Virus record (IMG/VR): IMGVR_UViG_3300033407_000001
Coordinates: 7,824 to 71,823 of that record
Source of the DNA: a virus
DNA length: 64,000 nucleotides
Reading direction: 5' to 3' (one strand)
Positions 45,094 through 63,762 of this stretch are shown one piece after another. Under the pieces are notes generated by a model. It was not told the DNA's origin, ran no database searches, and saw nothing but the letters and a program-made list of their open reading frames with translations. The translations under genes were made by a program, and so were the position numbers. The first letter of the stretch is position 1. Each line of letters starts with the position of its first letter.

Positions 45094-45950
45094 AAAGACA
45101 CTTCGTCAAAGAACTACATCACCTGCTATTTCCATTGTCAATATTTCTAAGGGTGCAGTATCGCGAGGGCTTAGTATGAAAGTATTTTCCTGGACAATAG
45201 CAGATGATGTATTAAGGGGGAATTGTCCATAAAATCGATCCCTTGATCCATTGGCAGATGATCTGGTAATCATAAGGGGTGATGATGAAAATACTTTCAT
45301 GGTTGATTTTGTAACACTGGGTAATTGCTGGAGTTAGGTGGTTGGATATAGTGGGAGGATCTGCTTTCGGCCTCCCTCGCCGGGGCAAAAAAGTTCACAA
45401 AAGATCGAACGCAAATGGACGCAAGTGCAGGAAAACTCCTGAGTTTTCCGAATTTCTCACTGTTCAGGGGAGGGTCAAAAGCTAACGCAAACGAGCCCTG
45501 CATTGTCAAAGCGATTGTCAAGGCAGGGCTCGGATCAGGAAAACTCCTGAGTTTTCCTTATGTATCAGGGAGGTAGTGGTTAGGTTATGGTCTCGTCCCA
45601 GACTGCCCCGTGTTGGCTCCAGGGTAGACAAGCGTCTGAGTTTTCTCTAGGCCCCTACGAGGAAAACTCAAGCCATCACCACTGCTTACCTCTGGGCGCT
45701 CGTCCAGCTCCTTCTTTTTCCTCTTGCCAGCAGCGACTAGATCTCTACCTTCAGCTATAAGCTTCCTGAACATAGCTTGAGTATACCATGAACCCCCAAA
45801 TGGGTGTACCTTGACAATGCAGATCTGATCTCATCCTGAAAAGTTCAAATCCTCGGGGTTTTTCTAACTAACTACCTGAAATGTCGTCATTGACAATTGC
45901 TCGGATTACCAATAATCCACCCTTTCTCTACTATATAAAAACAGATACTT

Positions 45951-46817
45951 ATGGCACCCAAACGCGGCACTGGTGATATTTCAGTCAAACAGGAGGTGTA
46001 TGAAGCCTATCGGGCTCACTGCACAACCCATGAACTCTCGATGCGGAGGGAGATGGATAAGCTGATCGATGGGGTGCTTGATGGTGACCTGAGTTCAGAG
46101 AATGCTCATTGGGCAGCTGTGAATGCGGAGAAGAGGAAGCGGAAGAAGGAACCCACTTTCCGGGAGTCAGTCAGGGAATTCGCTTCCAAAAATGACAAGG
46201 TTCCACCTGAGATTCGGGCTCTGTCTGGTGTGCCAGCTCTGGTTGAGCGTGAGCCAACCAAGGCTGAGCTAATCTCCACTGAGGAGATTCTCGCCAACTT
46301 CTATCGTATTTTTGACGATGGATGTCCCTTTGGTCAGGCGGACCCCTACTTCGTCAAGGTGCTCAGGAAAGATCCGGTGCCAGTTGATGTCACCATTGAG
46401 CTTGGCCTGCCAGCCGCTGATGCTGCCCGCACTGCAAAAGACTTCAAGCTTGAGCCGCAAGATCATCCTGAGCCCTCGCCTATGCCAAGGCCGAGCGCTG
46501 AGCTATTCAAGACAGACCCGGAGATTGCTGAACTCGATGCAGAGATTCAGGCTCGTGTTGCAGACGCCAAGCAGCGAGGGTTGGTATCCAAGCCAACCAA
46601 GGCTGAGTGGGATGCTGAGCTTAGGGAGGAAGCCTTGAAGAAGATGAGGCCGTACCACGCTGGCCCAGCTCTGTTCTCGCCCGAGGGCCTAGAAGAGGCA
46701 AAGGCCGCCCCGAAGGACGACCCTGTTACTCCATCTGCACCTGGCAGGCGAGATATGGGAACCGTATCACTTGGGGAGTTGAAAAGCTGCATCGATCCTA
46801 CTTGGGGCAAGAAGTAA
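45951..46817 (+). CDS. Protein with N-terminal ribbon-helix-helix-like DNA-binding domain and Pro/Ala-rich tail
   Basis: DISV-KQEVYEAYRAHC-LSMRREMDKLIDG strand-helix-helix pattern; TTGACA...TAAT promoter at about 45891. Confidence 0.5.
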   Translation: MAPKRGTGDISVKQEVYEAYRAHCTTHELSMRREMDKLIDGVLDGDLSSENAHWAAVNAEKRKRKKEPTFRESVREFASKNDKVPPEIRALSGVPALVEREPTKAELISTEEILANFYRIFDDGCPFGQADPYFVKVLRKDPVPVDVTIELGLPAADAARTAKDFKLEPQDHPEPSPMPRPSAELFKTDPEIAELDAEIQARVADAKQRGLVSKPTKAEWDAELREEALKKMRPYHAGPALFSPEGLEEAKAAPKDDPVTPSAPGRRDMGTVSLGELKSCIDPTWGKK

Positions 46818-47537
46818 TCTCTGCTAGAGTAGAATCTTGCTCGCTTCGGTGGGTTTCGGCGCTGCATATGTTTGACTTGATGCACCAGGACCAGGTTTTT
46901 TTGATCGCATATTGTTTCCCTGGTCCGACTTCATAGGGTGAGTAGTCGGTCTTCACTTCAATTGAGTCATACCGGCAACACGTTTGAAGGCTACCTTCCT
47001 GCAAGAGGGTAGCCTTCCTTGTTTTCGGTAGATCTTCCGTGTAGGGTCGCCTCACTCCCATAGTAGCGACTATAGGAGCCCGGCACTGAAGTCTCGCCGT
47101 TTGTGCGATGTATCAGTGCCGGGGTTTCATTTGAGCAGGTAACGTTTTGCCCTTTTGTTACCTTTGACTCCCAAGTAGCCATGATCAAACACTTACGATC
47201 ATGGGCGCTTCCCCAGGTCATAGTGGGTGGATGATCTGTCCTCGCTGTTAATATCGTGAGCGTCTACCAACCTGTAGACGATCTGTCTACTACACTAGAG
47301 ACACCCACCGTATATGGATCAGGAAAACTCCTGAGTTTTCCATTCCTCCCCTGGAAAATCCTGGCCAAATTTTTGGCGCGGCGGAGCGCTGTTCAATGTC
47401 AGACTGTCTGGCTGTTCAGTATGGGTGTGTGCGATAAGTAGGATATGGAAAACTCAGGGCTCCTGCCCGGCGCCCGATCGGGCGGCCAGTCTGGGACAAA
47501 GCCTGAAATTCTGTCTGGTCTGAGGTGTTTACATACT

Positions 47538-48806
47538 ATGGCAGCATTACCAATTCACTTAGGCCGGAGCGTATCCGGGGAACCGTTCACCCTTCCACTC
47601 TCAGCGCTTAAGCGACACTTTCTCGCGCTCGGTGGCACGGGCTCGGGCAAAACCGTGCTTTGCAAAGCCTTGATTGAAGAGTGCATCCGGTATCGATTGC
47701 CGTGCGTCGCGATTGACCTGCAAGGGGATATCCTTTCCCTTGCCCTGCAATCCATGGATTGCCCCGAAGGTGCCGTTCCCGTTTCCGACGTGACCCGTGA
47801 GAAGTACGCGGAGCGCCTCGATGTCAAGGTTTGGACCCCCGGCTCACGGGATGGAATTCCCGTGTCATTGGCGCCAGATATGACCATTCCAAACATTGCC
47901 GGCGTGGAGGATAGGGTTGCTATCATGGAGTCCATTGCCTGCGGTATCGGTACTATGCTTGGCAATTCCAAAGATGGAACGATTGCAGGCTTTTACACTA
48001 TCCTTGAGTATGCCGACCAGCACGGACTAGAGTGCAGCAATCTCGGTGACTTGGAGATGTTTCTCGCGGACCCACCGAACGAGCTAGCCGACGAGCTAGA
48101 GCATATTATGCCGGCCAAAGTGCGGGCCAACATGCTGGCATCGTTGAAGATTCGTCTCAAGGGGATGAATGGCCTCCTGTATGCCATGGGTCAAGGCATT
48201 GATATTGATGAATTATTCGGGCTTCGCTTGCCCGGTCCGCTTACCTACGGTAAGGCGCGGCTATCGATTATCTACCTTGCCCACTTGACGCAAGAGCGCC
48301 AGCAAGAGTTCCTGGCCCTATTGTTTTCAGCTATGTATCGCTGGATGCTGCGGCAAAGCGATGCTTTGTCTGGTGTTTTGTACCTGGACGAAATAGCCCC
48401 GTTTTGTCCCCCAGTGAGCAAACCCCCTGCTAAGGCGGGGCTGATGATGCTCTTGCGTCAAGCCAGAAAATACGGTCTCTGCACTGTACTTGCAACGCAA
48501 TCGCCGGGCGACCTGGATTATAAGGCGCTTGGCCAGATTGGTACGGTTGCGCTCGGTCGTATTACTCAGGGCCGGGACATTGGCAAAGTGGACGGTATGC
48601 TCTCGACCATACCTAACATCGATTCAGGGGCCATTGTAGCGGCTCTGCCTGGCCACAAGCGAGGCGAATTCGTGATTGTGAATCCAGACCACCTAGCGGC
48701 GCCAGAGTCCATCCAGGCGCGATGGTTGGCCACCGAGCATCGCATTGTGGAGCGCCAGAGCATCGGGTTGCTCGTTTCCGACGATGACCGTGAAATTCTA
48801 GGCTAG
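47538..48806 (+). CDS. HerA/FtsK-like P-loop ATPase (DUF87/DUF853-like)
   Basis: HFLALGGTGSGKT, LYLDEIA, RQARKYG...LATQSPGDLD; start fixed by class-B promoter. Confidence 0.88.
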   Translation: MAALPIHLGRSVSGEPFTLPLSALKRHFLALGGTGSGKTVLCKALIEECIRYRLPCVAIDLQGDILSLALQSMDCPEGAVPVSDVTREKYAERLDVKVWTPGSRDGIPVSLAPDMTIPNIAGVEDRVAIMESIACGIGTMLGNSKDGTIAGFYTILEYADQHGLECSNLGDLEMFLADPPNELADELEHIMPAKVRANMLASLKIRLKGMNGLLYAMGQGIDIDELFGLRLPGPLTYGKARLSIIYLAHLTQERQQEFLALLFSAMYRWMLRQSDALSGVLYLDEIAPFCPPVSKPPAKAGLMMLLRQARKYGLCTVLATQSPGDLDYKALGQIGTVALGRITQGRDIGKVDGMLSTIPNIDSGAIVAALPGHKRGEFVIVNPDHLAAPESIQARWLATEHRIVERQSIGLLVSDDDREILG

Positions 48807-48824
48807 CTGAGGTGTTTACTAGGC

Positions 48825-49007
48825 ATGAGCAAGACAGCCAAAGAGTTCTGGGCCGACGCCGAGAAGCGGAGCGCCAACCTTAACCGGGCCTTTGTTGAGA
48901 TTCAGCAAGGCCCGAATCCTCTCACCCCGGATGAAATCCGGATCTTGATCAACAAGCGGCCAGAGCAGTATGGGCGCTTCGAGAAGTATGCGACCCCGAA
49001 GGGCTGA
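48825..49007 (+). CDS. Small hypothetical protein
   Basis: Class-B promoter, downstream hairpin. Confidence 0.75.
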   Translation: MSKTAKEFWADAEKRSANLNRAFVEIQQGPNPLTPDEIRILINKRPEQYGRFEKYATPKG

Positions 49008-49100
49008 TCCCTCCGGGGCTTCGCCCTGTCGGCCTGAGTTTTCCTCCCAGGCTGGCTGATTTTCTCTGAAATTCCGCATGAGCTGAGGTGTTTATCTACT

Positions 49101-49289
49101 ATGAGCAACAAAAGCCAAACATACAGAGAGCTACTCCAATCCTTACTCGCACTCGATGAGAAGCAATTGTCCATGACTGTCACCGTGGAGATGGGTCCAG
49201 AGGATGAGTATTATCCGGCGGAGCTGAGGATCACAGATTCAGGTCATGAAGTTCTTGACGAGAATCATCCCGTTATTTTCGTCCCATAG
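49101..49289 (+). CDS. Small hypothetical protein
   Basis: Class-B promoter. Confidence 0.78.
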   Translation: MSNKSQTYRELLQSLLALDEKQLSMTVTVEMGPEDEYYPAELRITDSGHEVLDENHPVIFVP

Positions 49290-49396
49290 ATGAGCCCTGC
49301 GATCAAATCGCAGGGCTTCGCCCTGTTGCCATGAGTTTTCCTCCTAGGCTGTGCGCTTTCGCTGAAATTCTGGCGGAGCTGAGGTGTTTACTAGAT

Positions 49397-49786
49397 ATGA
49401 GCAACTCACTGAAACCAAAAATTGAAATGGTCCCAATGATTCCCTTCACCATCACCGAGAAGATGGCCGAGGCCGTGAACAAGCACTTCGAGTATGGGAC
49501 TGGACCGGCGCGACTGATAATGATTCGCAGCGGGCTTATCCAGGAGATTCGTATCCCAGGGATGCGGATGACTTCCAAGGCTCCCAAGTGTTCGACCATT
49601 CTCCGTAAGGAGTTCGGGATGAGTGGTAAGCCGGTCAAGCTGTTGCACCAGTTCGAGATTCTCCTTCAGATGACGGAAGTTCTCGATGGATGGGATTCGA
49701 CTACCATCGTTGAGAATGGGACCCTGCGAATCCTCACCGGGGAAGAGTCCGACGAGCTGAAGGCTCAGCACAAGGGCGTGGCATAA
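49397..49786 (+). CDS. Hypothetical protein
   Basis: Class-B promoter; terminator at 49789. Confidence 0.78.
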   Translation: MSNSLKPKIEMVPMIPFTITEKMAEAVNKHFEYGTGPARLIMIRSGLIQEIRIPGMRMTSKAPKCSTILRKEFGMSGKPVKLLHQFEILLQMTEVLDGWDSTTIVENGTLRILTGEESDELKAQHKGVA

Positions 49787-49788
49787 TC

Positions 49789-49811
49789 AGGGGGGCTTAG
49801 ACCCCCTTTTT
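49789..49811 (+). terminator. Intrinsic terminator
   Basis: GGGGGG-CTTAGA-CCCCC-TTTTT after the stop codon. Confidence 0.75.
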
Positions 49812-49917
49812 GTGATCAGGGATGGAAAACTCAGACTGTCTGTGGATATGCCCTGAGTTTTCCACAACAAGCTTTGCGTTGGGTGAAATTCCACAAGAGC
49901 TGAGGTGTTTACTGAGC

Positions 49918-50406
49918 ATGAGCAACAACTACACACAATTTTCTTTTGATTTCATCGTGCCGGAGAGCCAGCGAGGCTGGGTCTGTGAGGTGGTGGAACT
50001 CATTGACGAGCACACCGGTGATGAGCTGGAGGATGCTAGTCCACTACTTGTGGCTATTCCCGATTGGAATGAATACCAGGAACCAGGCTTCGACATCAGC
50101 ATCGACATGGAGAATGGGTGCTGCTGGATCTACGCTGAGGAGACCGGGAACGTGGACAACGTTATCGCCTTTCTCATGGCCCTGTTGATCAGGCTTGCCG
50201 ACGAGAGCCAGCGTGAGTTCGGGTTTATCAAGCGTGATTCTGCGCATCTCAAGGAGGTGGGATTCACCTACGCCGATACGTGCAGTTCCATGCGGGTCAA
50301 TGAGTTCGGAGGCGGGGCGGTTCGCGTCTATCTCAATGGAGGTGGCGTTTCCTTCCAGACCATGAGTGCCCACCAATGGCTCGCCGACGCGATGGCGGCG
50401 GATTAA
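49918..50406 (+). CDS. MGE-type hypothetical protein (TCS..R..EFGGGAV motif)
   Basis: Class-B promoter. Confidence 0.8.
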   Translation: MSNNYTQFSFDFIVPESQRGWVCEVVELIDEHTGDELEDASPLLVAIPDWNEYQEPGFDISIDMENGCCWIYAEETGNVDNVIAFLMALLIRLADESQREFGFIKRDSAHLKEVGFTYADTCSSMRVNEFGGGAVRVYLNGGGVSFQTMSAHQWLADAMAAD

Positions 50407-50441
50407 CTGAAATTCCGCATGAGCTGAGGTGTTTATTTACC

Positions 50442-50801
50442 ATGAGCAATGCAAAAAAAGAGTTCCGCTGTACTCGAAACAGCCCATATCAACATGAGTG
50501 TGCAGGCCAGCATGATCTGAAGGCCCGCCAAGGTCACTACATCCGCGCCGAGTCAAAGGAACAGGCCCTCACCGAGATGGCCCGTATCTTCATCGAAGAC
50601 AAGCATGGTTTCACTGCTGATTGCAAAGACAGGTGGGATGACAATGAGCTTCAGTTCGCCAGGCTACTCTCAGAGCTGGTGGCTGCCGGGCTTGACCACG
50701 AGACAATCGCTGGCGCGGCTGAGTCGATGGACTTGGACCCCGCCGAGGTGCAGGAAATTCTCGCTAGAGCTGAGACTGTCTTCGAGAAAGCAAAACCATA
50801 G
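50442..50801 (+). CDS. Hypothetical protein
   Basis: Class-B promoter. Confidence 0.78.
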   Translation: MSNAKKEFRCTRNSPYQHECAGQHDLKARQGHYIRAESKEQALTEMARIFIEDKHGFTADCKDRWDDNELQFARLLSELVAAGLDHETIAGAAESMDLDPAEVQEILARAETVFEKAKP

Positions 50802-50805
50802 GGAT

Positions 50806-50824
50806 AGGGGCTTCGGCCCTTTTC
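50806..50824 (+). terminator. Intrinsic terminator with cUUCGg loop
   Basis: AGGGGC-TTCG-GCCCTTTT. Confidence 0.75.
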
Positions 50825-50888
50825 CTATATATGGAAGAGTTTTCCTTGATAAGATGAAATTATGGGTTCACTCAGGTGTTTATAGACT

Positions 50889-51077
50889 ATGAGTACAAAC
50901 AGCAAGACAACCATCAGCCCGCCAACGGACACGGAGAGAATTGAGTCCCTCGAAAAACGTGTAGGCATCCTTGAATCGCAACTGCTCGTCTGTATGCGCT
51001 GGATGCGTCGGGAGGCGGAGAAGGAAGCCGTACTGAAAGATCCGGATTTCAAACCGATGGTGGTGGGTTTATCCTAG
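50889..51077 (+). CDS. Small hypothetical protein
   Basis: Class-B promoter. Confidence 0.72.
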   Translation: MSTNSKTTISPPTDTERIESLEKRVGILESQLLVCMRWMRREAEKEAVLKDPDFKPMVVGLS

Positions 51078-51289
51078 TAGTAGAACAACCAGGCACCTGC
51101 CGCAGACGACCCTACAGAGATGATCAGAAGGACCCATGGCACTCGCCTCGGGTTCCTTCTCTTTGGCATTGGAGTGATCAGTCCTTGATGAATGCTTCTT
51201 TTATAGTCCACGGTTACTGAGACTCTCTATGACCATCATCCAATTGTCTAGAGTCTGAAATTCTGGCGGAGCTGAGGTGTTTACTAGAT

Positions 51290-51760
51290 ATGAGCAACCA
51301 AATTAAAGTCAGCCCAGGTTCAGAGCTTATTGGCCTTTTGGGGCCAAAGGCTCTGCCCTCCATCGACACTTTTCGCGAGCTGGTTATCGCAGCGGCAATG
51401 AGCGATGACCACCTGCCGCCAGAGGTTCTTGCTGGAATCCTCACTGCATACATCGAGATGAACTCTCATCTGTGCGAGAATGAGGATGCCGGCTCCGACT
51501 TCGATCTCATCTACATGCCTGAGTCTGAGCAACTCTATCGAGAGTTCGCCGTCAAGGGGTTTCGCAAGGGCATGCGCAAAGACACCAGTGAATTCGATGA
51601 TGATGAAATATTCGAGAGGTGTTGTATGTATGAGTTCGAGGTTGCCGCATGGCCCGATCAACTGTTGGCCGACATTGCATTCGCTATCGGCTACCGCGAC
51701 GCAATGCAGGCCCAGGAGTTCTATCGCTATGCCAGTGAACAGAAGGGAGGGATGAGCTAA
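51290..51760 (+). CDS. Acidic hypothetical protein
   Basis: Class-B promoter. Confidence 0.78.
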   Translation: MSNQIKVSPGSELIGLLGPKALPSIDTFRELVIAAAMSDDHLPPEVLAGILTAYIEMNSHLCENEDAGSDFDLIYMPESEQLYREFAVKGFRKGMRKDTSEFDDDEIFERCCMYEFEVAAWPDQLLADIAFAIGYRDAMQAQEFYRYASEQKGGMS

Positions 51761-52092
51761 TGATGTTACTTTGCTACCTGTTCCCACCCCTTGCTGTTCT
51801 GCTTATGGGTAAGCCGGTCAGCTCCCTCTTCAACGCTTTTTTGACCTTCGGGTGTTTCTGGATGCCCGGTGTGCGACATGCTCTCGCCTGCTATGTTGAG
51901 TATGCCGCCGACAAGAAGTTCACGAAGGTGGTGGACGCAATCAACGACCCGGCCCATGCTCGCAGAGGTGCGAAGTCAGGCCCAGACGGCGTGACCCATG
52001 TAACCAATAACTATTACGGTCAGGCTCCATCCAGTGGAGGCCATGACCCCGGAGTCGGTGCCAACGGCACGGTATTCCGCAGAAAATCGTAG
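51760..52092 (+). CDS. YqaE/Pmp3-family small membrane protein with C-terminal extension
   Basis: LLCYLFPPLAVLL.GK....N..LT...W.PG..HAL. Confidence 0.75.
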   Translation: MMLLCYLFPPLAVLLMGKPVSSLFNAFLTFGCFWMPGVRHALACYVEYAADKKFTKVVDAINDPAHARRGAKSGPDGVTHVTNNYYGQAPSSGGHDPGVGANGTVFRRKS

Positions 52093-52362
52093 GGGTAATG
52101 TTGCTCATTATAAATGTCGGGGGAGGGTGGTTCCTCCCCCGGCGCCCCGCTTAAGCAATGGAAAACTCTAAGAGTTTTCTTTGCCGCGCAAGCGCTTGCG
52201 CTGGTACGATGTGATTCCACCGGGGCGGATAACACGCACCCATATTGATCGGCCTGCTCGCTGGCTTCGATGGCGAGACTGCCTACCTATAGAACACCTG
52301 AGCCAGAGTGAAGTTTCTGCGTTTTCGCTGAAATTCTGCGAGAGCTGAAGTGTTTATGTACC

Positions 52363-54123: not shown

Positions 54124-54127
54124 GACC

Positions 54128-55325: not shown

Positions 55326-55679
55326 CTACTGTGCGGCTTGGTTTTCGACTGCTTTCCGTGGCTTCGCGAGGCGACGCAAGCGGTCTTTCGCAGCCGAGGT
55401 GAGACGATATTGGCCGTCTCCGATCTCCTCGGGATGCTCAATCCACTTGGCTTTCACCAGGCGACGAACGGTGTTGCGAACTCGTGAATTTGCCTTGGCT
55501 TTGCCGAGGCCCTTCCATTTACATTCAACGATCAGTTCTTTGATGGTCAAGATGGGGCGGCCTGGTTTGGCGAGCGCTTTAACGATTTTCAGTTCGTTGT
55601 CGCTTAGCTCCGAGTAGTGGAGCTTCAGCTCCCCCCCTCGCTGCCCTTGCTTCGATTTCAGCTCGGTTTGTTTACTCAT
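55326..55679 (-). CDS. Winged-helix DNA-binding protein (paralogue of 56049..56750)
   Basis: SRVRNTVRRLV...IGDGQY; class-B promoter. Confidence 0.72.
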   Translation of the reverse strand: MSKQTELKSKQGQRGGELKLHYSELSDNELKIVKALAKPGRPILTIKELIVECKWKGLGKAKANSRVRNTVRRLVKAKWIEHPEEIGDGQYRLTSAAKDRLRRLAKPRKAVENQAAQ

Positions 55680-55920
55680 AATTCATAAACACCTATTGGT
55701 TCTCATAATTTCACAATCATTGAGGAATTATAAAAAGTCTAACATTATTACGGCTCTAGTCAATGCAAAGTACAGATCGAGGCTACTTTATTTTTACAGG
55801 CTCATTTAACCCACAGCCTGTGGACATAAAAAAATAGATCTCCGGTAACATTACTAGTTTGAGAAACCTTCAATGAAGTCAACGCAGTTAGATCTTTATC
55901 CACAGATACATCCACAATGC
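55680..55920. promoter_or_regulatory. AT-rich region with DnaA-box-like 9-mers (candidate origin or control region)
   Basis: TTATCCACA at 55896-55904; near-boxes at 55807, 55819 (reverse) and 55908; two TAGATCT. Confidence 0.4.
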
Positions 55921-56048
55921 CTCGTTTTTGCTGGACAAATAGGTGCCTGGATTTTGTTGACCACGATCTCTGGCTGATGCTAGGTAGGTTCTCGGGAGAT
56001 AGTCCGCCGGATACTGAAATTCTGTCGGTTCTGAGGTGTTTACTGAAC

Positions 56049-56750
56049 ATGAGCAAGCAACTGCATGTCATTGATAATGGTGTGGTATTCAACTCTGGGC
56101 AGAGGGGTAAGCCTCTCGATTTAGAGTTCAGCCAACTGAACAAGGATGAGCAGGCTGTTTTGCAGACGCTCCGCCAGTCCGGGGATCGAATGAAGATCAT
56201 ATCCATCATGGAGGCGCTCGAATGGGACATCCCAGTTGTGCCGTTCTCGCCAGAGTATTGCAAAGTCAAAGGGTATAGCAGGGTTCGCAACGCTGTGCGG
56301 CGCCTTGTTCGCTCTGGGATGATCATGCACAGTAGTGCCATTGGTGACGGAACCTATATGGTTCCCGATATCGTTCCGGTTGCTACCATTGCCCCGGTCA
56401 AGCTCTTGCCGGTTGCCAATCCCCTGCCGGTTGACATCGATAGCATCACCAAAAGGGCCATGGCGGCTGGCAGGAAGAGTGACTGTGCATTCTACAATGC
56501 CTGCCTAGATCAGGCTATCAGTAACAAATGGGATGGTTTCTCGTGCCATGGATGTAGGGCTTACGCTGAGCCCGATGAGTTCCAGAAGGAACAGAACATT
56601 CTTGGGCTTCGCGCCGTTCAGACAGCCGCAGATCTGGTGGCCAAACATGGCAAGGTCAACCGGATTCGTGGCGTGAAGCCTGGCGCAGATGCAAAGCGTA
56701 ACTCCGGCGAGATGGTGAGTCTGTCTGAAGTCATGGCGATGACGGACTAG
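56049..56750 (+). CDS. Winged-helix protein with C-terminal Cys-cluster domain
   Basis: SRVRNAVRRLV...IGDGTY; C..Y..C...SCHGC; class-B promoter. Confidence 0.75.
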   Translation: MSKQLHVIDNGVVFNSGQRGKPLDLEFSQLNKDEQAVLQTLRQSGDRMKIISIMEALEWDIPVVPFSPEYCKVKGYSRVRNAVRRLVRSGMIMHSSAIGDGTYMVPDIVPVATIAPVKLLPVANPLPVDIDSITKRAMAAGRKSDCAFYNACLDQAISNKWDGFSCHGCRAYAEPDEFQKEQNILGLRAVQTAADLVAKHGKVNRIRGVKPGADAKRNSGEMVSLSEVMAMTD

Positions 56751-57015
56751 CTACAGCTGGGGCAATCGTCCGAGCTTGAGATAGAAGATCCCGCATATCG
56801 CAACGACGAGCACTGCCCAGAGGATCTTCTTCGACTTGGTGATCTGAACATTGGGAAGATAGGCATCTATCAGGCTTCCCAGCGACCATCCAAGTAGGCC
56901 GCTGAGCAGGGATATAATGATCAGTCGAGTATCTGGATCCATAGTGGATCCTTTTACCCTTGGGGATCTGAAAACTCTATGAGTTTTCCTGTCTTGGGCC
57001 GGAGGCCGCGATGGC

Positions 57016-57270
57016 TCAGCTCTCAACGGGGGAGATGATGATTTTCACCAGGATGAGGTCAAGGTCATCAAGGTCATCTCCATAGATTTCCTCTTCTTTG
57101 CACATACCAAGGTGTTCTTTGGCTTCCTCGGGTGTGTCAAACAGATGATCGAATGGGTGCTCATATCTCATGGGATCGTCCAGGGGTATGACGTAAAGTG
57201 GTTGGCCATCGCCACAGACAAGCTGGCGATAGGCATAGTGTGTAGTTGATGGCTGTTTTGCATTGCTCAT
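57016..57270 (-). CDS. Hypothetical protein
   Basis: Class-B promoter (divergent pair). Confidence 0.75.
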   Translation of the reverse strand: MSNAKQPSTTHYAYRQLVCGDGQPLYVIPLDDPMRYEHPFDHLFDTPEEAKEHLGMCKEEEIYGDDLDDLDLILVKIIISPVES

Positions 57271-57348
57271 GGCTGGTAAACACCTCAGCTAGCCCAGAAT
57301 TTCAGTGAATTGTCTGAAATTCTATCGGCTCCCAGGTGTTTACTAAAC

Positions 57349-57984
57349 ATGAGCAATGCAATCGACAACAAGAGTATCGTCCGCGACCTTCGCAATGATA
57401 CCGTGGACGTTCAGTCCCGGCACATCGACTGGGCAGCAACACTCGGCGAAGACCTGGAGGGCTGGGAAGCCTTCGAGGCTGTTGATTGCGACGAGTGCGA
57501 CCGGGTCACGGTCCTTACAACGGCCATGGGTGGCGATGAGCATCGCTACATTGAGCCAGAGTTTGAGAATGAAGACGGCGAAGTGGTCGAGAATGAGTGC
57601 ATGGGGCATCTCTACTTTGAAGGCCCAATGATGAATAGCTTTTACCCTTGCCCCTTCAACGATACCGACGAAGCGGCACGGGCGATTGCCAGCCTTCCCC
57701 TCTGTGTGATTGTCCTGCAAGACGGCGAGACCGGCTTTGCCCTCACGGGTGGCGGCATGGACTTGAGCTGGGAGATTTGCGACGCCTACATCCGTTGCGG
57801 TTTCCTTCCCCCATTCCAGTTCTGTTGCCTACCAGACATGGCCGGCAAAGACAGGGAGAGCCGAACTCAGCTCATTCTCACAGCCTGCCAGCGCACAGCC
57901 GATGTCCGGGGGAGCCAAGCCGAGTACCGCCGCATCGAACTTAAGCAGATGGCTACCAAGTACAAGAATCCAAACGCCGCGTAA
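57349..57984 (+). CDS. MGE-type hypothetical protein (LTGGGMDLSWEI..AY motif)
   Basis: Class-B promoter. Confidence 0.8.
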   Translation: MSNAIDNKSIVRDLRNDTVDVQSRHIDWAATLGEDLEGWEAFEAVDCDECDRVTVLTTAMGGDEHRYIEPEFENEDGEVVENECMGHLYFEGPMMNSFYPCPFNDTDEAARAIASLPLCVIVLQDGETGFALTGGGMDLSWEICDAYIRCGFLPPFQFCCLPDMAGKDRESRTQLILTACQRTADVRGSQAEYRRIELKQMATKYKNPNAA

Positions 57985-58160
57985 ACGGCGAGTGGTTGCT
58001 CTAGGTGGCCGGGGAATTCTCCTCGGCCACCGTTTTTGCGTGTGCTCCGATCGGAAAACTCTATGAGTTTTCCTTGTGACAGAAAAGAACTGCCCCCCAA
58101 GGCTATGCTGAACACAACGGCCGAATTGCCACTGATTCAACCCTGGAGGGCAGAAAAGCT

Positions 58161-58580
58161 TTATGAACAGTTGACTGGACAAAAGAGGCCAGAGCTGTAG
58201 CGCCCCGACTGGTATTCCACCCGGTCTGCTGGCATGGCCACAAGTCTTTCAGGGCCATTCTCGCCGGCTATTGTGCCAATTTCAACACAATAGCCATAAT
58301 CATACTCTTTGGGAGCGCGAGTGCGCAGGAGCCCATATTTCTTAGAGTGGTCGATGACCTGCCATTTGCCACTCTTGCCACCGTCGCCAAATAGTGAGCG
58401 GAGACGTTGCTCCATCTCAAAGTAGCCTGGCGATGTCGTTGCCATCGCCTTAGAGGAGAAGGCGCCATCATATCGGCCCAGTTCGCCGATTTCTTGCAGA
58501 GCCCGTACTGTGCTCATATGAACATCAGCGCTTGCTATGAGTGCCTCCTGGTCAATTTCAAATCTGATTATTCTGAACAT
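58161..58580 (-). CDS. Hypothetical protein
   Basis: Class-B promoter; start MFRII. Confidence 0.75.
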   Translation of the reverse strand: MFRIIRFEIDQEALIASADVHMSTVRALQEIGELGRYDGAFSSKAMATTSPGYFEMEQRLRSLFGDGGKSGKWQVIDHSKKYGLLRTRAPKEYDYGYCVEIGTIAGENGPERLVAMPADRVEYQSGRYSSGLFCPVNCS

Positions 58581-58658
58581 GCATAGTAAACACTTCAGGA
58601 ATCTGAAAATTTCAGCAGATTCTTTGAAATTACACAAAGGCTGAGGTGTTTACTGGGC

Positions 58659-59024
58659 ATGGGCAATAGAGCCCACCCGAATCAACCGGCCCCGCGAGGG
58701 TGTCCGACCGAAAGTAGGTTGCTGATGTTTGTGATGGATGGGGATGTAATCCCGGTTAGTCTTGATGAGTCGATTGATCGAATCGTTGCCTTACAGAATG
58801 AGCGCAAGCTCCTGAATGCGAAGATCGACAATCTCAAAGCAGTGGCAAAGCTTCACTTGAAGAAGCTTGAGGTCACTGAGTACGAAGCGCCCTCTGGCCA
58901 CTCTGCGAAGTATTCGTCTAAGCAGATGCCAAAGTATGACAAGGAGGCAATCCTTGAGCTTACAGGTGAGGACTTCGCCCTCTGTGTGAGCTTCACGAAC
59001 GTCACAGCGTTCACGGTCAAGTAG
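58659..59024 (+). CDS. Hypothetical protein
   Basis: Class-B promoter. Confidence 0.72.
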   Translation: MGNRAHPNQPAPRGCPTESRLLMFVMDGDVIPVSLDESIDRIVALQNERKLLNAKIDNLKAVAKLHLKKLEVTEYEAPSGHSAKYSSKQMPKYDKEAILELTGEDFALCVSFTNVTAFTVK

Positions 59025-59124
59025 GCCAGTCAGGCGGGGAGAGATCCCCGCCCTCTTTGCTTGTGTGACATTGGAAAACTCAATGAGTTTTCCGACTCCC
59101 CGGCGAGGCCGAGGCCCCGAAGGG

Positions 59125-59586
59125 TTAGGCCCATACGATGAGCCTGTCACCTGCCCGCTCGCACGTTGCTAGCAATTGCTCGCAGCGCTGGCGGAGATAG
59201 CCGCCCTCGCGTCCCATGGTGATGAATCGATCCGAGTTCTCAAGGCCCATGGACTCGGCCCGCTCGTCATTGCTCATGGGAGCATCGTGGTTGCGCTCCA
59301 CGTCCCACAGACGACGGCGCAGCATTGGTGCCAGTTCTTTGGCAGGAATCTCCCCACAGTAGTCAACCGTGAGATTGAGCCAGCGCAAGAGATCGAGCGC
59401 GTTGCCATTGGCCATGTTGATCTCCGCATCGCAGATATCACACGAGTACATTTCTGGTGTGTCCTGGTCAAGCTTCCAGGCAGCATCGCAATCGTCGCAC
59501 CATCGGCGCGAGCAATCACAGGACTCAGCGGGCTCAGTGTAGCCCTTGGACTCGTTCTTGACTCCGATGAAGAATGTTATGCTCAT
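59125..59586 (-). CDS. Hypothetical Cys-rich protein
   Basis: Class-B promoter; hairpin after the stop. Confidence 0.78.
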   Translation of the reverse strand: MSITFFIGVKNESKGYTEPAESCDCSRRWCDDCDAAWKLDQDTPEMYSCDICDAEINMANGNALDLLRWLNLTVDYCGEIPAKELAPMLRRRLWDVERNHDAPMSNDERAESMGLENSDRFITMGREGGYLRQRCEQLLATCERAGDRLIVWA

Positions 59587-59664
59587 ATATTGTAAACACC
59601 TCAGCTCTTGCAGAATTTCAGCGAATAGTCTGAAATTCCAGCTGCCCTCAAGTGTTTACTAGGC

Positions 59665-60180
59665 ATGAGCACAATAACCGCACGATACGTCGATACCTGT
59701 CTGTCTGATTACCTTCAGGACAGTTACTCTCGCCCAGGCCAGGCTCTTTGCCTTGCATCTCTTGGGTGTTCCATTGAGCAGACCGTTGAGGAGTTGCTCA
59801 ATTCCCTTGATGATTCCGACAGCGGGTTCCCTGAGACCATCGGCAACGATGAGATCAAGGAGGTACTGGCCGAGGCTATTGAGGCTATCGATCTCCGTTA
59901 CATCGATGAGAACGGCAACCGATGCCAGACTCCTCCCGAGGAAGATCGTGATTGCGAGGAGCCGATGCTCTATGTCCTCATTGAGTGGGATGCCAGTGTG
60001 GTCAAGCTCCGCATGACCGTCGATGTCGAATACCAAGCGAATGGAGTGGACTCGTATGAACTCAAGCTCATGCTTGAAGATGCGATCCGCCAGGCCTCGG
60101 CCAATGGTGCTCTTACTGGCGGCACGGGTGCCACCGTAACATCATGGGGAGCGAGCGCCGAGGTAGTACCCGAGGAGTAG
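59665..60180 (+). CDS. Acidic hypothetical protein
   Basis: Class-B promoter; UUCG hairpins at 60181-60200. Confidence 0.8.
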   Translation: MSTITARYVDTCLSDYLQDSYSRPGQALCLASLGCSIEQTVEELLNSLDDSDSGFPETIGNDEIKEVLAEAIEAIDLRYIDENGNRCQTPPEEDRDCEEPMLYVLIEWDASVVKLRMTVDVEYQANGVDSYELKLMLEDAIRQASANGALTGGTGATVTSWGASAEVVPEE

Positions 60181-60200
60181 CCCTTCGGGGCTTCGGCCCC
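60181..60200 (+). terminator. Overlapping UUCG hairpins followed by the GGAAAACTC palindrome
   Basis: CCCTTCGGGG / GGGGCTTCGGCCCC; no U-tract. Confidence 0.55.
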
Positions 60201-60286
60201 CCTGGGAATTGGAAAACTCTAAGAGTTTTCCGACCTACGCAAACGCTTGCGCGGCGAGGAGTTACCCTGCCGCGCAGCCCGCCCGC

Positions 60287-60697
60287 CTATTCCTTGAGTA
60301 GCGCATTGCATTTGTCGCAATTGGCAACGAAGTGCCGATCGAGCCAGGCAACAGTTTCGCCCTGTGTCTCATTGCCGCACAGTGGCAAGCTATCGTTGTC
60401 CATGTCGGGTATATGGCGCGGAGCGTCATATACTTCGACTCGGAAATAGCCCTCGGGGTCAATCCAAACGTCAACAGGGCTGGAGAGTGTCCCGCAGGTA
60501 TCTGTTTCCTCAATTTTCTCAAGCACGGTTTCGGCAGTCAAGAATTGAGGTTCACACCCGAACACCTCACGGGCTAGCTCGGCGTAGCGTTCTTCAGGCA
60601 TGGCGTTGATCGCCTGCTCGACCGTGAATGGTCGTTCCTGGCTGAACTCGTCGTCGGAGATGAAGAATTCGGGGCTGAATGATAGTGAGTAGCTCAT
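60287..60697 (-). CDS. Hypothetical protein
   Basis: Class-B promoter. Confidence 0.78.
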   Translation of the reverse strand: MSYSLSFSPEFFISDDEFSQERPFTVEQAINAMPEERYAELAREVFGCEPQFLTAETVLEKIEETDTCGTLSSPVDVWIDPEGYFRVEVYDAPRHIPDMDNDSLPLCGNETQGETVAWLDRHFVANCDKCNALLKE

Positions 60698-60818
60698 ATA
60701 TAGTAAACACTTCAGGACTTACGGAATTTCAGTAAAAGATCAGCAAACGCAGTGCTTTATGAGTTTTCCAATTCGGAACGCAAAAACCGCCCCGAAGGGC
60801 GGCGCGGTCTGGCTCCTG

Positions 60819-61034
60819 CTATGCTGGGAGTAGCAGATGGCCCTGTTTGCGAATCTTCCCAGCTTCCACCAGGGTTCCGACGATGGTATTGAACTGCTCA
60901 AGAGAGCATCCGATGCCCATGAGAGTCGCGTACAGATGGCCGGCTGGTAGGCCCTGCTCGCCCAATTCCTCGACTGTTTCAACAATTGCCGAGGCGATTG
61001 CCATGAGTGCTTTGATTGCTTGTGTGTTGCTCAT
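60819..61034 (-). CDS. Small winged-helix-like protein
   Basis: G.LYATLMG..CSLEQFNTIVGTLVEAGKI; class-B promoter. Confidence 0.7.
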   Translation of the reverse strand: MSNTQAIKALMAIASAIVETVEELGEQGLPAGHLYATLMGIGCSLEQFNTIVGTLVEAGKIRKQGHLLLPA

Positions 61035-61112
61035 ATTATGTAAACACTTGGGGACTGATAGAATTTCAGCGAAAAGAGTGAAATTCTAGCCTGGCTGGCG
61101 TGTTTATTAACC

Positions 61113-61697
61113 ATGAGCAAAACCACCAAAACCATCCGAATCCGCCTCGATGATGATGCTGAGTCGCCGCGTGAATATGCCGGCGAATTCAGCACCATGG
61201 CTTGCTGGCACAACCGTTACAACCTTGGCGACGTACAGCCCCGCGAAGAGCCGCAAGAATGGCTCAAGGAGAATGCGCCCAAGGGCTCCGTGGTTCTTTG
61301 CCTGTATCTCTACGATCACAGCGGAATTACCATGAGCACTGGCCCGTTTTCTTGCGGCTGGGATTCTGGCCCTGTTGGCTACATTGTGTCAACGCCAGAG
61401 CAGATTCGCGCAACCTTTATGGTCAAGCGTATCACCAAAAAGATTCGTGAGCAGGTCACGAAGAATCTCGAAAATGAGGTCAAGGTTTACGCGGAATATC
61501 TCGAAGGCAATGTCTATGGTTTTGAAATCATTGAGACAACCGAGTGTGACTCATGCCAACACGGGGAGCCAGAAGTGATTGACTCGTGTTGGGGATTCAT
61601 TGGCAACGATTGGGCGCTTGAAGCTATGGCCGACCATATCGACCCGGAGCTTCGCCCTCAGCTTGAGCAGGCTTGGGAAAATAGGTTCGACGGCTAG
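61113..61697 (+). CDS. Conserved phage hypothetical protein (SPRE...H.RY.LGD; YLYDHSG...WDSG motifs)
   Basis: Class-B promoter. Confidence 0.82.
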   Translation: MSKTTKTIRIRLDDDAESPREYAGEFSTMACWHNRYNLGDVQPREEPQEWLKENAPKGSVVLCLYLYDHSGITMSTGPFSCGWDSGPVGYIVSTPEQIRATFMVKRITKKIREQVTKNLENEVKVYAEYLEGNVYGFEIIETTECDSCQHGEPEVIDSCWGFIGNDWALEAMADHIDPELRPQLEQAWENRFDG

Positions 61698-61791
61698 GCC
61701 CTTCGGGGCTGCGGCCCCAGGTCGCCTGAGTTTTCCTGTAAGAGAATGAGATCTCAGTGAAATTCCACAAGAGCTGAGGTGTTTACTAGAT

Positions 61792-62097
61792 ATGAGCAAC
61801 ACCGACGAACAGCAAGAAACAATCGAAGAAGAGGCACGCCAGATCATGGTGGAGATCCTCTATCATCACTTCGGCGATGATTTCATTACATCGGATCGCG
61901 TTGACGGTTCAGTCTGCGGCGGAGATCCGCACGGATGGACTCAGGGCGCGGTGGCAACAATTCTCACTGAGAGCTGCTTGCCAGATCCGGTCTATGGTCC
62001 TGTTGAGGCATGGTGCCGAGTATTCGAGGATGCTGCCGAGCGTGGCCTACACTGCGAGCCAATCAATGGGGCGGTGATCGGAGTCTACCCCCTCTAA
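61792..62097 (+). CDS. Hypothetical protein
   Basis: Class-B promoter. Confidence 0.78.
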   Translation: MSNTDEQQETIEEEARQIMVEILYHHFGDDFITSDRVDGSVCGGDPHGWTQGAVATILTESCLPDPVYGPVEAWCRVFEDAAERGLHCEPINGAVIGVYPL

Positions 62098-62189
62098 GGG
62101 AAGGGGCTTCGGCCCTGTTTGCCCTGAGTTTTCCTTGAACTTATTGATTCACAGCTGAAATTCTAGCGCTTCTGAAGTGTTTACTAGAT

Positions 62190-62435
62190 ATGAGCAACAC
62201 CGGAAATCAATTCAGACTTATCGATCGTGGCAGCGGAGCATGGTCCGCTATCCTGAAGCGTAAGGCTGGAAGCCTTGCCGTACGGGTCATCACCGAACAG
62301 GGTGGCTATCGCATCGACTTTACCAAGAGCGTCGGCGCGGCTTGGCAACCCTGGGAGCCTATCGCGACCACTGTCTTTTCTACCTTCGACGAAGCCGAGA
62401 AGGCTCTACGAAGTTCTGTTACCGGGCTCCTGTAA
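62190..62435 (+). CDS. Hypothetical protein
   Basis: Class-B promoter; UUCG hairpin at 62440. Confidence 0.75.
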   Translation: MSNTGNQFRLIDRGSGAWSAILKRKAGSLAVRVITEQGGYRIDFTKSVGAAWQPWEPIATTVFSTFDEAEKALRSSVTGLL

Positions 62436-62576
62436 CTGCAGGGGCTTCGGCCCTTGTGCGAATTGGAAAACTCTATAAGTTTTCCTGCCTGCACAGTAAA
62501 AAGAGCGAGGGGATTGGACTTTGTACACTCGGGCCGGAGCCACTCGGACATAGTACACACACCCCTCACTCAAAAC

Positions 62577-62777
62577 CTACTCGGCGGCAGCTTGCTCCTC
62601 TTCGCGGTCCCGGCACAATTCCTCGAATTGCTCTTCGGTGTATTTGAACTGCGAGCAGAGGTCGCGCAAGTCCTGGTCATCTTCACAGATGAGAAGGTCT
62701 CGGTAAAGGTGCTCAGTATTGAGGACATGGAGGCTCAGCTCTTGTTCCCCGTACATTGTGATGTCTATCTTGCTCAT
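62577..62777 (-). CDS. Small acidic protein
   Basis: Class-B promoter (divergent pair). Confidence 0.75.
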   Translation of the reverse strand: MSKIDITMYGEQELSLHVLNTEHLYRDLLICEDDQDLRDLCSQFKYTEEQFEELCRDREEEQAAAE

Positions 62778-62855
62778 ATTCAGTAAACACCTCAGCTCGC
62801 CTAGAATTTCAGCGAATTGTCTGAAATTCTATCGGCTCCCAGGTGTTTACTAGAT

Positions 62856-63680
62856 ATGAGCAACACAAAACAATTTGGTGAGTCCGGTGTCTGGCGCGGC
62901 TGGGTTGAACTCGGCGGCGATATCAACTGGGAGGAGCATGGCGGCAAGTGGTGTCGCAAAGATCCGAATCTTTCTCGCGTGTTCTACGTGATTGAGCATA
63001 TGAATCTCGTTGAGTGCATGGGCGAGCGCGATGTCGAGGCCGGCGGCCTTGATAAATACGTGAGTAGCATCTCACGGATCGATCTCGATGAGATCCCGGA
63101 GTCTGAAGTGGAATCCGCGCTTGAGTCATGCGGCATCGAACTCGCCAACTATGACAGCGACGAGACTGATCTTGTTGTCGTTGAAGCTCTCACGGGCTAC
63201 GGATGCGCGGCCCCCATGGGAGAGTATTCAGATCCATCCTATCCCGAGCGGTCACGGGCGGCAGCAAGGCGCGAAGTCGAGGAGCTTATCGCCGATTCCG
63301 TCAAGTGCGAGGATATGCTTGACCGGCCAGTGAATGCCATCGGTTCCACGGCCAGGGACTTCGGCCAGGGTAACATCATGGCGGGGCTTGACCGATACAA
63401 GGTGGAGCAAGAGACAAGGGCTCTGAAGGTCCGACTCAAGAGGGTTCCCAGCGATGACCCGATTGCATTCGCTCATGGATTCCAGACGGGTTGCGCTGGC
63501 GGTGCATTCCCCGCCGATGAGAGTGACCTGGCCCCAGAATGGCTCAGAGGGCATGAGCTTGGGCTTAAGGTCCGCAACGGTGACGAGGACATTCGCGAGC
63601 TGAATCACTGGGTAGAGCCGGATACGAGCAACACCTCCATGGATCTCATGGTCAAGCTGCAAAGCGCGGCAAGAAACTAA
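62856..63680 (+). CDS. Acidic hypothetical protein
   Basis: Class-B promoter. Confidence 0.8.
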   Translation: MSNTKQFGESGVWRGWVELGGDINWEEHGGKWCRKDPNLSRVFYVIEHMNLVECMGERDVEAGGLDKYVSSISRIDLDEIPESEVESALESCGIELANYDSDETDLVVVEALTGYGCAAPMGEYSDPSYPERSRAAARREVEELIADSVKCEDMLDRPVNAIGSTARDFGQGNIMAGLDRYKVEQETRALKVRLKRVPSDDPIAFAHGFQTGCAGGAFPADESDLAPEWLRGHELGLKVRNGDEDIRELNHWVEPDTSNTSMDLMVKLQSAARN

Positions 63681-63685
63681 ACACT

Positions 63686-63720
63686 CGGCGGGGGTCGGAA
63701 TTGCCGGCCCCCGCCGTTTT
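63686..63720 (+). terminator. Intrinsic terminator, possibly bidirectional
   Basis: CGGCGGGGGTCGG-AATTG-CCGGCCCCCGCCG-TTTT between convergent genes. Confidence 0.75.
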
Positions 63721-63762
63721 GCTGTACAGAATAGGAAAACTCTAAGAGTTTTCCTTCCCGCG

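Follow-up and report, generated by a model that had tools for sequence, protein, structure and literature searches.

A conserved 9-nt word at the 3′ ends of transcription units in a gene-cassette block of large soil phages

The DNA analysed here (the window) is a 64,000-nt stretch that corresponds to bases 7824-71823 of the 199,636-bp IMG/VR virus record IMGVR_UViG_3300033407_000001 (termed G000), which represents a soil phage with a genome of approximately 200 kb. Transcription of the left 45 kb of the window runs leftwards. At the strand switch begins a block of genes whose intergenic regions carry the 9-nt word GGAAAACTC or its complement GAGTTTTCC. The distribution of this word, its conservation in related phages and its possible functions are the subject of this report.

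The repeated word and its block

The exact 9-mer occurs 30 times in the window when both strands are considered, compared with 0.51 occurrences expected and a maximum of three in 100 shuffled sequences. All 30 copies fall within positions 45430-63754, and no exact copy lies to the left of 45430, as had been claimed from inspection of the sequence alone (hereafter the sequence-only reading). A scan that permitted one mismatch added five partner arms, at 45638, 52172, 55264, 56969 and 62477; six one-mismatch matches to the left of 45.4 kb correspond to the level expected by chance.

Grouping of the copies yields 22 loci, close to the approximately 23 sites of the sequence-only reading. These comprise 11 palindromes with short spacers, one pair split by 22 nt, one tail-to-tail pair and nine lone copies. 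The earlier description of 11 full palindromes, with 2-nt centres near 45-47 kb and 3-nt centres beyond 52 kb, was borne out, and the nine lone copies compare with an earlier figure of approximately ten lone half-sites. The split pair also exists with the 22-nt spacer that had been described, but its true coordinates are 49824/49855, 2 nt away from those reported. Confinement to the right third of the window is likewise correct but understates the clustering. A genome-wide motif scan, which had been proposed as a check, placed 41 of the 42 9-mers of the G000 record at genome positions 53,253-77,530, a single 24-kb block that makes up 12.5% of the genome and runs 5.7 kb past the end of the window. 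The lone outlier at genome position 189,013 lacks a comparable context. The motif is non-random and clustered, which confirms the original observation.

The block opens with a group of sites in the strand-switch region. This group includes the palindrome GGAAAACTC-CT-GAGTTTTCC (45430-45449), a second palindrome with the 2-nt centre CT (45538-45557) and the tail-to-tail pair GAGTTTTCT-N14-GGAAAACTC (45638-45669, with copies starting at 45638 and 45661), an arrangement that is rare. No strand is assigned to paired sites. Directly downstream of this site cluster is a plus-strand gene (45951-46817) for a 288-aa protein with a putative N-terminal ribbon-helix-helix (RHH) domain. The third palindrome with a CT centre (47322-47341) lies downstream of the RHH gene and is followed by a lone GGAAAACTC on the plus strand (47447-47455), located 48 nt upstream of the promoter cassette of a gene for a 422-aa HerA/FtsK/TrwB-like P-loop ATPase (47538-48806, plus strand). 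The ATPase gene adjoins the block start in all lineages described below.

Farther into the block, lone copies of GAGTTTTCC on the plus strand occupy tandem gene junctions at 49036-49044 (past a hairpin, with the next promoter cassette 22 nt farther on), 49333-49341 (past a hairpin with an 11-bp stem, 12 pairs in the fold), 50837-50845, 61728-61736 and 62126-62134. Two other plus-strand copies of GAGTTTTCC lie past a terminator with a U-tract (53850-53858) and past a long hairpin (54341-54349). The head-to-head pair with the 22-nt spacer (49824-49863) is found at a tandem junction, past a terminator-like hairpin at 49789-49808. The remaining lone site (60761-60769, listed on the plus strand) has the minority orientation; it resides at a minus-strand tandem junction and adjoins a terminator with its own U-tract.

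Eight palindromes have 3-nt centres. The first (52160-52180) has the centre TAA and the right arm GAGTTTTCT, and the other seven are located at convergent junctions. These include 55252-55272, 56969-56989 (left arm TGAAAACTC) and 62465-62485 (right arm AAGTTTTCC), as well as four perfect palindromes with the centres TAT (58053-58073), AAT (59073-59093), TAA (60211-60231) and TAA (63734-63754). Two of the perfect palindromes follow plus-strand intrinsic terminators. One terminator (58004-58031, 12-bp stem and U-tract) ends 21 nt before the palindrome at 58053, and the other (63686-63716, 13-bp stem and U-tract) ends 17 nt before the palindrome at 63734, beyond which the block continues to genome position 77,530.

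A fixed 37-nt promoter cassette (TGAAATT, 15 nt, TGTTTA, 6 nt, ATG) recurs approximately 45 times, both at window positions 47504-63967 (for example, 49363-49399) and elsewhere in the genome. Inside the block the cassettes occupy both strands, and those at genome positions 25-53 kb are on the minus strand. The ATG is usually followed immediately by AGCAAC, and consequently most block proteins begin with MSN or MSK. That the second box always stands 6 nt before the ATG suggests that the cassettes are promoters giving leaderless mRNAs. Pairs of divergent cassettes are always exactly 79 nt apart, ATG to ATG. The gene map defined by the cassettes consists of tandem one-gene units arranged in runs, divergent pairs and convergent pairs. 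Just past the end of the window, and still inside the motif block, is a gene for a 162-aa extracytoplasmic function (ECF)-like sigma factor (Sigma70_r2, E = 1e-6; window coordinates 64067-64555, genome 71890-72378, L062:1462-1950), which may read the TGAAAT-N16-TGTTTA cassettes. The clustered regularly interspaced short palindromic repeats (CRISPR; Cas12m) array contains no sites.

Conservation and placement of the sites

A search of IMG/VR with the exact palindrome identified one true relative, a 197-kb record (G001). An alignment query with the DUF932-like protein of the block then recovered G002, which is the same phage as G003 and whose record is 80% complete, and the metagenome loci L071, L075, L069 and L074. 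A search with a single protein, the ATPase, found no relatives, and megablast of window positions 45000-52000 against 50,697 phage records gave no match. Six lineages were available for comparison (G000, G001, G002, L071, L075 and L069), with L071 represented by 21 kb of contig. The G+C content of the relatives ranges from 51 to 63%, and their DNA identity to G000 is only 65-75%, and this only in the most conserved genes.

All 61 copies of the 9-mer in G001 are located at 20.7-64.2 kb, and 43 of 44 copies of the 8-mer in G002 are located at 34.5-56.7 kb. Similarly, L071 carries 34 copies in 21 kb, L075 carries 17 in 9.5 kb, and L069 is also positive. The identical word, with the consensus RGAAAACTC across the six lineages, is present at high density in the equivalent block of every lineage despite differing promoters. 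Specifically, G001 does not have the G000 promoter cassette but has another one, and the second box in G001 and G002 differs, being TTGTAGTA-like. The word is absent in relatives at 35% protein identity, and no equivalent repeat was seen in the more distant relative L058. A lack of conservation in relatives was among the outcomes that together would have counted against the sequence-only reading; instead, five further lineages keep the identical word.

The genes among which the word resides are mostly lineage-specific, with only about 22 of the roughly 95 G001 block genes having a G000 homologue. No G001 block gene matched the position of the sigma factor when searched against G000. An unchanged word amid changed promoters suggests that the binder, if there is one, serves a conserved core function.

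Variation among the palindromes is equally restricted. In 66 of the 71 short-spacer palindromes from the six lineages, variation is limited to the outermost base (G or A), and four of the remaining five, which have changes in the inner arms, come from L069. No compensatory change was found in the inner 8-mer of any of the 71. Because covariation is lacking and exact lone half-sites exist, recognition is more probably by sequence than by structure. A 442-aa protein encoded to the left of the window (genome 2623-3951, L005:2623-3951, minus strand) matches the PurZ-type adenylosuccinate synthetase family (phrog_1211, E = 4e-79). Given this match, the phage DNA may carry 2-aminoadenine in place of adenine, which would alter the minor-groove readout of the A-tract of the word.

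The same palindrome occurs in unrelated DNA. Among 185,579 species genomes there are 42 exact matches, of which 11 are in Terriglobia/Acidobacteria. All 11 lie near the 3′ end of an rve-type insertion sequence (IS) transposase gene, in a predicted three-hairpin structure; the Terriglobia IS loci (L079, L083, L086, L099, L103, L105, L113, L115 and L119) carry a 21-bp palindrome. IS copies that were retrieved without selecting for the palindrome exhibit compensatory arm changes, such as GGAAAATTC paired with GAATTTTCC, which indicates that the palindrome is a structural hairpin in these elements. The lone 9-mers of a Terriglobia chromosome fall within ordinary coding DNA. The possibility that the word defines a host regulon was dropped because the palindromes sit in IS elements and the lone 9-mers in coding DNA, and the Terriglobia matches are at most a weak hint as to the host, or a coincidence.

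In IMG/VR, 25 of the 28 matches to the exact palindrome are in low-GC contigs, inside a long nested repeat resembling a miniature inverted-repeat transposable element (MITE). In these large phage contigs (38-45% G+C; L016-L043, for example 3300042907_002604, 3300042937_001586 and 3300042937_001620), the identical palindrome forms the centre of a nested inverted repeat of approximately 120 nt that is present many times per genome. This MITE-like repeat appears unrelated to the clade and was treated as a coincidence or a separate element.

Neighbouring sites are overwhelmingly arranged head-to-head (97 cases, versus three tail-to-tail and five direct), and 47 of 253 8-mers are lone copies. The centre of the palindromes measures 2 nt in G002, L071, L075 and L069, and either 2 or 3 nt in G000 and G001. 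The 30 longer spacers measure only 10-12, 16-22 or 28-34 nt, and none is 4-9, 13-15 or 23-27 nt long. The steps of approximately 9 nt between these classes hint at a constraint on placing two bound units, but this is suggestive only, as the classes were defined after the data had been seen and a few of the spacers are paralogous copies. The pair geometry as a whole points to paired occupancy, with long spacers that do not regularly extend the stem.

Other short elements accompany the word. A second palindrome, GCAAGCGCTTGC, is usually flanked as GCGCAAGCGCTTGCGC and occurs 12 times in G000 and 11 times in G001 without being restricted to the block. It is often beside or within 9-mer pairs (for example, at window positions 52188-52199 and at G001 positions 30699, 36003, 48017 and 62024) and has the appearance of a terminator-like hairpin common to both genomes. 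A GGCC(A/C)T-like element (ATGGCC/GGCCAT) recurs at lone sites and within long-spacer pairs, where it precedes GAGTTTTCC by 0-5 nt, as at window positions 49024-49035 and 49323-49332 and at G001 60998-61034. In addition, a AGACTGTCT/CTGACAG motif is repeated in several G000 and G001 spacers.

The placement of the sites relative to genes was examined in G000, G001 and G002, in which junctions between neighbouring genes were classified with a simple codon-usage gene caller. Of 35 divergent junctions, 31 have no site, one has one site, one has two and two have three or more; the exceptions include block-start regions. Convergent junctions show the opposite tendency, as sites are present at 28 of 35. 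A head-to-head pair is found at 25 junctions, a single site at three and no site at the other seven, with three or more sites at none. The 100 tandem junctions divide into 40 with no site, 19 with one, 40 with two and one with three or more. At the tandem junctions with a lone site, 16 of 19 copies read GAGTTTTC along the direction of transcription (one-sided binomial P of approximately 0.002, calculated by hand).

The same rules can be followed gene by gene in G000. A palindrome is present at every convergent junction between 54.8 and 63.8 kb, and back-to-back divergent promoter pairs are all without a site. At tandem junctions a lone site or a pair is found, and sites are missing where the gap measures only 19-36 nt. 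No site is found between any promoter cassette and its ATG, and outside the block-start cluster the sites are dispersed, with one locus per junction.

Sites are also depleted from coding DNA. Conservatively defined coding sequences, which make up approximately half of each block, contain only 2 of 48 sites in G000, 7 of 100 in G001 and 0 of 43 in G002 (P < 1e-13 in each genome). In the window, every site lies outside credible coding DNA, in agreement with the intergenic placement noted earlier. The sites are located past strong hairpins, at a distance of 7 to 21 nt. Several of these hairpins are full intrinsic terminators with a U-tract that end 17-21 nt before the site, and terminators with U-tracts upstream of sites are found at 58004-58031, 63686-63716, 53812-53833 and 49789-49808. 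The view that the hairpins lack U-tracts holds for some of them but not for these canonical terminators. Likewise, the description of the sites as lying between a hairpin and the next promoter is accurate for tandem junctions but not for the palindromes of 55252-63754, which reside between converging genes, in gaps that contain no promoter. The sites occupy the DNA immediately flanking transcription units at their 3′ end, a location that argues against promoter operators and activator sites.

Candidate binders and possible roles

From these observations we infer that a protein, probably encoded by the phage, binds the word and thereby affects transcription. Specifically, RGAAAACTC may be a double-stranded DNA site for a clade-conserved phage protein that serves as a boundary or roadblock between transcription units, an explanation that we give an even chance of being correct. 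One subunit, or one small dimer, would read each 9-mer, and the preferred unit would be two head-to-head copies. With sites placed after a terminator hairpin and before any next promoter, across a hypervariable block of one-gene cassettes, the bound protein would stop RNA polymerases that read through the terminator. Such a roadblock would shield the next promoter and keep converging units from colliding. Lone sites would act against transcription from one direction only, and the cluster of five to seven sites upstream of the RHH gene could add autoregulation. The sequence-only reading had suggested sites for a repressor or terminator protein. The terminator form, similar to the stoperators of mycobacteriophage L5, fits best because the sites track 3′ ends, avoid divergent promoters and are invariant in sequence, and because lone sites are polar (16 of 19). 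A role as operators at promoters is unsupported.

Two types of protein encoded in the block are candidate binders. The first is the RHH protein. At the block start of G000, G001, G002 and L075, five to seven irregularly spaced sites within 250-400 bp are followed directly by an RHH-like gene, and the motif-less phage G004 does not carry an RHH gene. The protein has no Pfam match, but profile searches of the PDB matched ParG (1p94, E = 0.0012) and AvtR (4hv0, E = 0.0022). An AlphaFold2 (AF2) model predicts the two helices that would be expected, formed by residues 14-43, after a disordered strand region (predicted local distance difference test, pLDDT, 77-87). The RHH proteins of G001, G002 and L075 end in an identical C-terminal ASKIFTF after a variable linker.

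The second type is represented by a divergent pair of winged-helix paralogues that is present in all six lineages. In the window, one member is a 117-aa protein (55326-55679, minus strand) whose putative recognition helix has the pattern SRVRNxVRRLV, and the other is a 233-aa paralogue (56049-56750, plus strand) that has the same winged helix and a C-terminal four-Cys domain. The segment common to both can be written S-R/K-V-R-N-x-L/V-R-R-L-V, with V67, R68, N69, R72, R73 and L74 invariant. The AF2 model (pLDDT 72) shows the SRVRN-type segment as a long third helix that is followed by a beta wing. Foldseek matched this model to the winged helices of MarR, ArsR, MukE and linker histone with a probability of approximately 1, and a sequence search of the PDB with the winged-helix profile gave nothing significant. 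An invariant putative recognition helix fits an invariant DNA word. We consider the winged-helix pair a slightly better candidate binder than the RHH protein. Both had been named by the sequence-only reading and both remain, with DNA binding putative for each. In four lineages, the small winged-helix protein terminates in an acidic tail, EEF or EQEF; like the ASKIFTF ends of the RHH proteins, this may be a partner-binding tail.

Several observations weigh against the roadblock explanation. Two candidate binders compete and each has a flaw. L071 carries an XRE-type helix-turn-helix (HTH) gene at the RHH position, and no RHH gene was found in its 21 kb. Moreover, the DNA-facing strand residues of the RHH domain are TGDISVK in G000 and RRSISVS in other lineages, despite the identical word. 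The Foldseek matches of the winged-helix model are weak (E of approximately 0.01-0.07, TM score of approximately 0.5). As for the positional rule, the junction counts derive from crude gene calls that were cross-checked in G000 only, against promoter-defined genes, and these counts are not fully independent because some intergenic joints are paralogous copies. The cluster of sites at the block start sits in a divergent region, contrary to the rule. Forty tandem and seven convergent junctions are siteless, many of the tandem ones being very short gaps. Finally, sites at tandem junctions are mostly symmetric pairs, such that strict polarity is confined to lone sites, and the asymmetry of palindrome arms at the outer base (G or A) shows no link to the direction of transcription.

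An alternative, which we regard as unlikely, is that the words are recombination sites bounding mobile promoter-gene-terminator cassettes, which a tyrosine recombinase or another enzyme would exchange or invert in the manner of an integron or shufflon. The block is certainly hypervariable, as reflected by the roughly 95 G001 block genes of which about 22 have a G000 homologue, and complete expression units are flanked by the sites. Between lineages, individual cassettes have changed place or orientation, and one of them keeps its 3′ site pair in both genomes. However, rearrangements between G000 and G001 also split siteless divergent promoter pairs, and breakpoints are not confined to sites. 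G002 and G003 are identical and thus offer no insertion or deletion breakpoints to compare. The phage was found in only one soil DNA sequencing run, probably its source, and in no RNA run listed; in the soil run, contig breaks and apparent joints occur only at repeated promoter cassettes and none at 9-mers, but contigs cannot show rare variants, so that this weighs on neither side.

The enzyme and the geometry of the sites also make recombination less attractive. The small tyrosine recombinase of G000 (window 33146-33718, minus strand) is a 190-aa catalytic domain that lacks a recognisable DNA-binding arm, and its gene is 12 kb outside the block. In G001, a homologue (69-73% identity, PF00589) is encoded inside the block-start site cluster, but no homologue was detected in G002, whose record is 80% complete and contains 43 sites. 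The G001 region 21329-23336 (L047:1329-3336) contains the RHH gene, the tyrosine recombinase gene (minus strand) and an endonuclease-VII-like gene between the cluster and the next palindrome. Tyrosine recombinases act with a fixed 6-8-bp overlap and serine recombinases with a fixed 2-bp core. Arms that are 2-3 or 10-34 nt apart, together with exact lone half-sites, are unsuited to strand exchange. The recombinase option offered by the sequence-only reading is weakened by this geometry and by the failure to detect the enzyme in the 80% complete G002 record. In its boldest form, which we find rather improbable, the 9-mer would be the word of a phage cassette-exchange system, with autonomous cassettes in an integron-like array inside a jumbo phage that the small tyrosine recombinase or some other enzyme would capture, excise or invert at the sites. 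If true, such a system would explain a constant word amid the turnover of genes and promoters.

By analogy with ParG/ParF and TrwA/TrwB, the sites might instead be DNA handles, on which the RHH protein and the HerA/FtsK/TrwB-like ATPase would act for compaction, partition-like positioning or internalisation of the DNA. The earlier idea that the sites might mark the first-injected DNA falls under this proposal, which we doubt to much the same degree as recombination. The order of site cluster, RHH gene and ATPase gene is kept at the block start, the RHH profile matches ParG, and the ASKIFTF tail of the G001, G002 and L075 RHH proteins could bind a partner. In contrast, the ATPase is not ParA-like, matching instead HerA, DUF87, FtsK and TrwB, and L071 has no RHH gene at this position. 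Furthermore, sites outside the cluster are dispersed rather than arrayed, and handles would leave both the 3′-end rule and the polarity of lone sites unexplained.

It is rather improbable also that the word acts in RNA, either as a palindrome folded into a 9-bp hairpin or as GAGUUUUCC signalling the pausing, termination or processing of read-through transcripts. The palindromes are predicted to fold as hairpins, and GAGUUUUCC is on the sense strand at the 3′ end of nearly every unit that has a site. Certain upstream hairpins have no U-tract of their own, and the word supplies a UUUU 5-10 nt farther on. However, the distance of 7 to 21 nt between hairpin and site is too great for the U-tract of an intrinsic terminator, and because this distance varies, the word was rejected as such a U-tract. 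Several sites are located beyond complete terminators. The palindrome itself has four or five A-U pairs in its stem and no trailing U-tract, unlike an intrinsic terminator. Lone sites have no pairing partner, long spacers fail to extend the stem in any regular manner, and the 71 palindromes lack the compensatory changes exhibited by the bacterial IS hairpin of the same sequence. Rfam 15 gave no match to window positions 44500-64000.

The least probable proposal is that the words are classical operators, through which a repressor or activator would act on adjacent cassette promoters for temporal shut-off of the block: lone sites do lie 9-29 nt upstream of the next promoter and in five lineages a cluster of sites stands ahead of the first regulatory gene of the block, but back-to-back divergent promoter pairs are siteless in 31 of 35 cases, convergent junctions, which lack promoters, mostly have a pair, the sites stand at no fixed distance from the promoters, and the same word stands beside different promoter types in different lineages. 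A role for GGAAAACTC as a -35-like promoter element was also rejected, because its flanks are not conserved.

Relation to known systems

The systems closest in kind appear to be the L5 stoperators, the dyad repeats of Cluster O mycobacteriophages and the promoter-terminator joints of T4-like phages. Stoperators of Cluster A mycobacteriophages are bound by repressors such as L5 gp71 and that of TipsytheTRex, and in L5 have been proposed to halt elongating RNA polymerase rather than initiation only (PMC9283540). As in L5, more than 20 copies of one short word occupy short intergenic gaps, and the orientation of single sites follows transcription, as observed here for 16 of 19 lone tandem sites. 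The word described here is 9 bp long, however, and most copies form head-to-head pairs, whereas a monomeric repressor binds the single asymmetric L5 site of approximately 13 bp. The sites are also confined to 12-22% of the genome, absent from promoters (31 of 35 divergent junctions) and placed after terminators, whereas L5 sites are genome-wide and also act as early-promoter operators. No gp71-like repressor was identified and there is no sign that the phage is temperate.

Cluster O mycobacteriophages carry 17-bp dyad repeats, TGTTCGG-N3-CCGAACA, whose binder is predicted to be a dimeric DNA-binding protein (PMC4351075). The resemblance lies in invariant inverted arms around a variable 3-nt centre, in more than 30 copies that are mostly unlinked to promoters. 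About a third of the Cluster O repeats are in coding DNA and they are distributed genome-wide, in contrast to the coding-excluded sites of one block described here, which additionally exhibit the 3′-end rule, polar lone half-sites and long-spacer pairs.

The T4-like phages contain composite promoter-terminator motifs (PeSLs), in which a host-type early promoter is joined to a stem-loop, and these repeats have been proposed as exchange points that shuffle cassettes (PMC2839356, PMC4122927). The block carries joints of this kind, as its terminator-promoter joints are repeated and flank one-gene units, and its genes are largely lineage-specific. Both systems thus place repeated regulatory joints beside small orphan genes in hyperplastic regions. 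The phages described here differ in having an extra, separate word between terminator and promoter that remains constant while promoters change. The strict 3′-end logic, the combination of polar lone sites with head-to-head pairs and the constancy of the word distinguish these sites from L5 stoperators, Cluster O repeats and PeSLs alike.

Two further comparisons relate to the alternatives discussed above. On plasmid TP228, each ACTC box, flanked by AT-rich sequence, is bound by one ParG dimer, whether the box is direct or inverted (parH/OF; PMC3130281). The word similarly ends in AAAACTC, and a cluster of boxes is found upstream of an RHH gene. The ParG boxes, however, form a contiguous array with an 8-bp period that serves as both centromere and operator with a ParA-type ATPase, whereas in the phages the sites are scattered over gene ends and the neighbouring ATPase resembles HerA/FtsK.

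Integron attC and shufflon sfx sites resemble those of the block in being inverted repeats at the 3′ end of small cassettes in a variable array, and in one lineage a tyrosine recombinase gene is present at the array edge. An attC site is a folded site of 57-141 nt, and its recombinase is always present. The phage cassettes differ in that each has its own promoter and they lie in both orientations, the arms of their sites are spaced by 2-3 nt or occur as lone half-sites, and the 190-aa recombinase was undetected in one lineage.

Many phage genomes contain dispersed short palindromes, mostly of unexplained function, and the positions of the sites described here provide a testable logic for one such set. 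The pattern suggests that a DNA-bound protein sets the boundaries of transcription units where dozens of orphan genes each have their own promoter. If the roadblock explanation is true, stoperator-like control would extend to an uncultured clade of large soil phages, and a 9-bp word with a small protein would constitute a compact, orientation-dependent insulator. Such an insulator would help to explain how hyperplastic regions of phage genomes gain genes without transcriptional interference.

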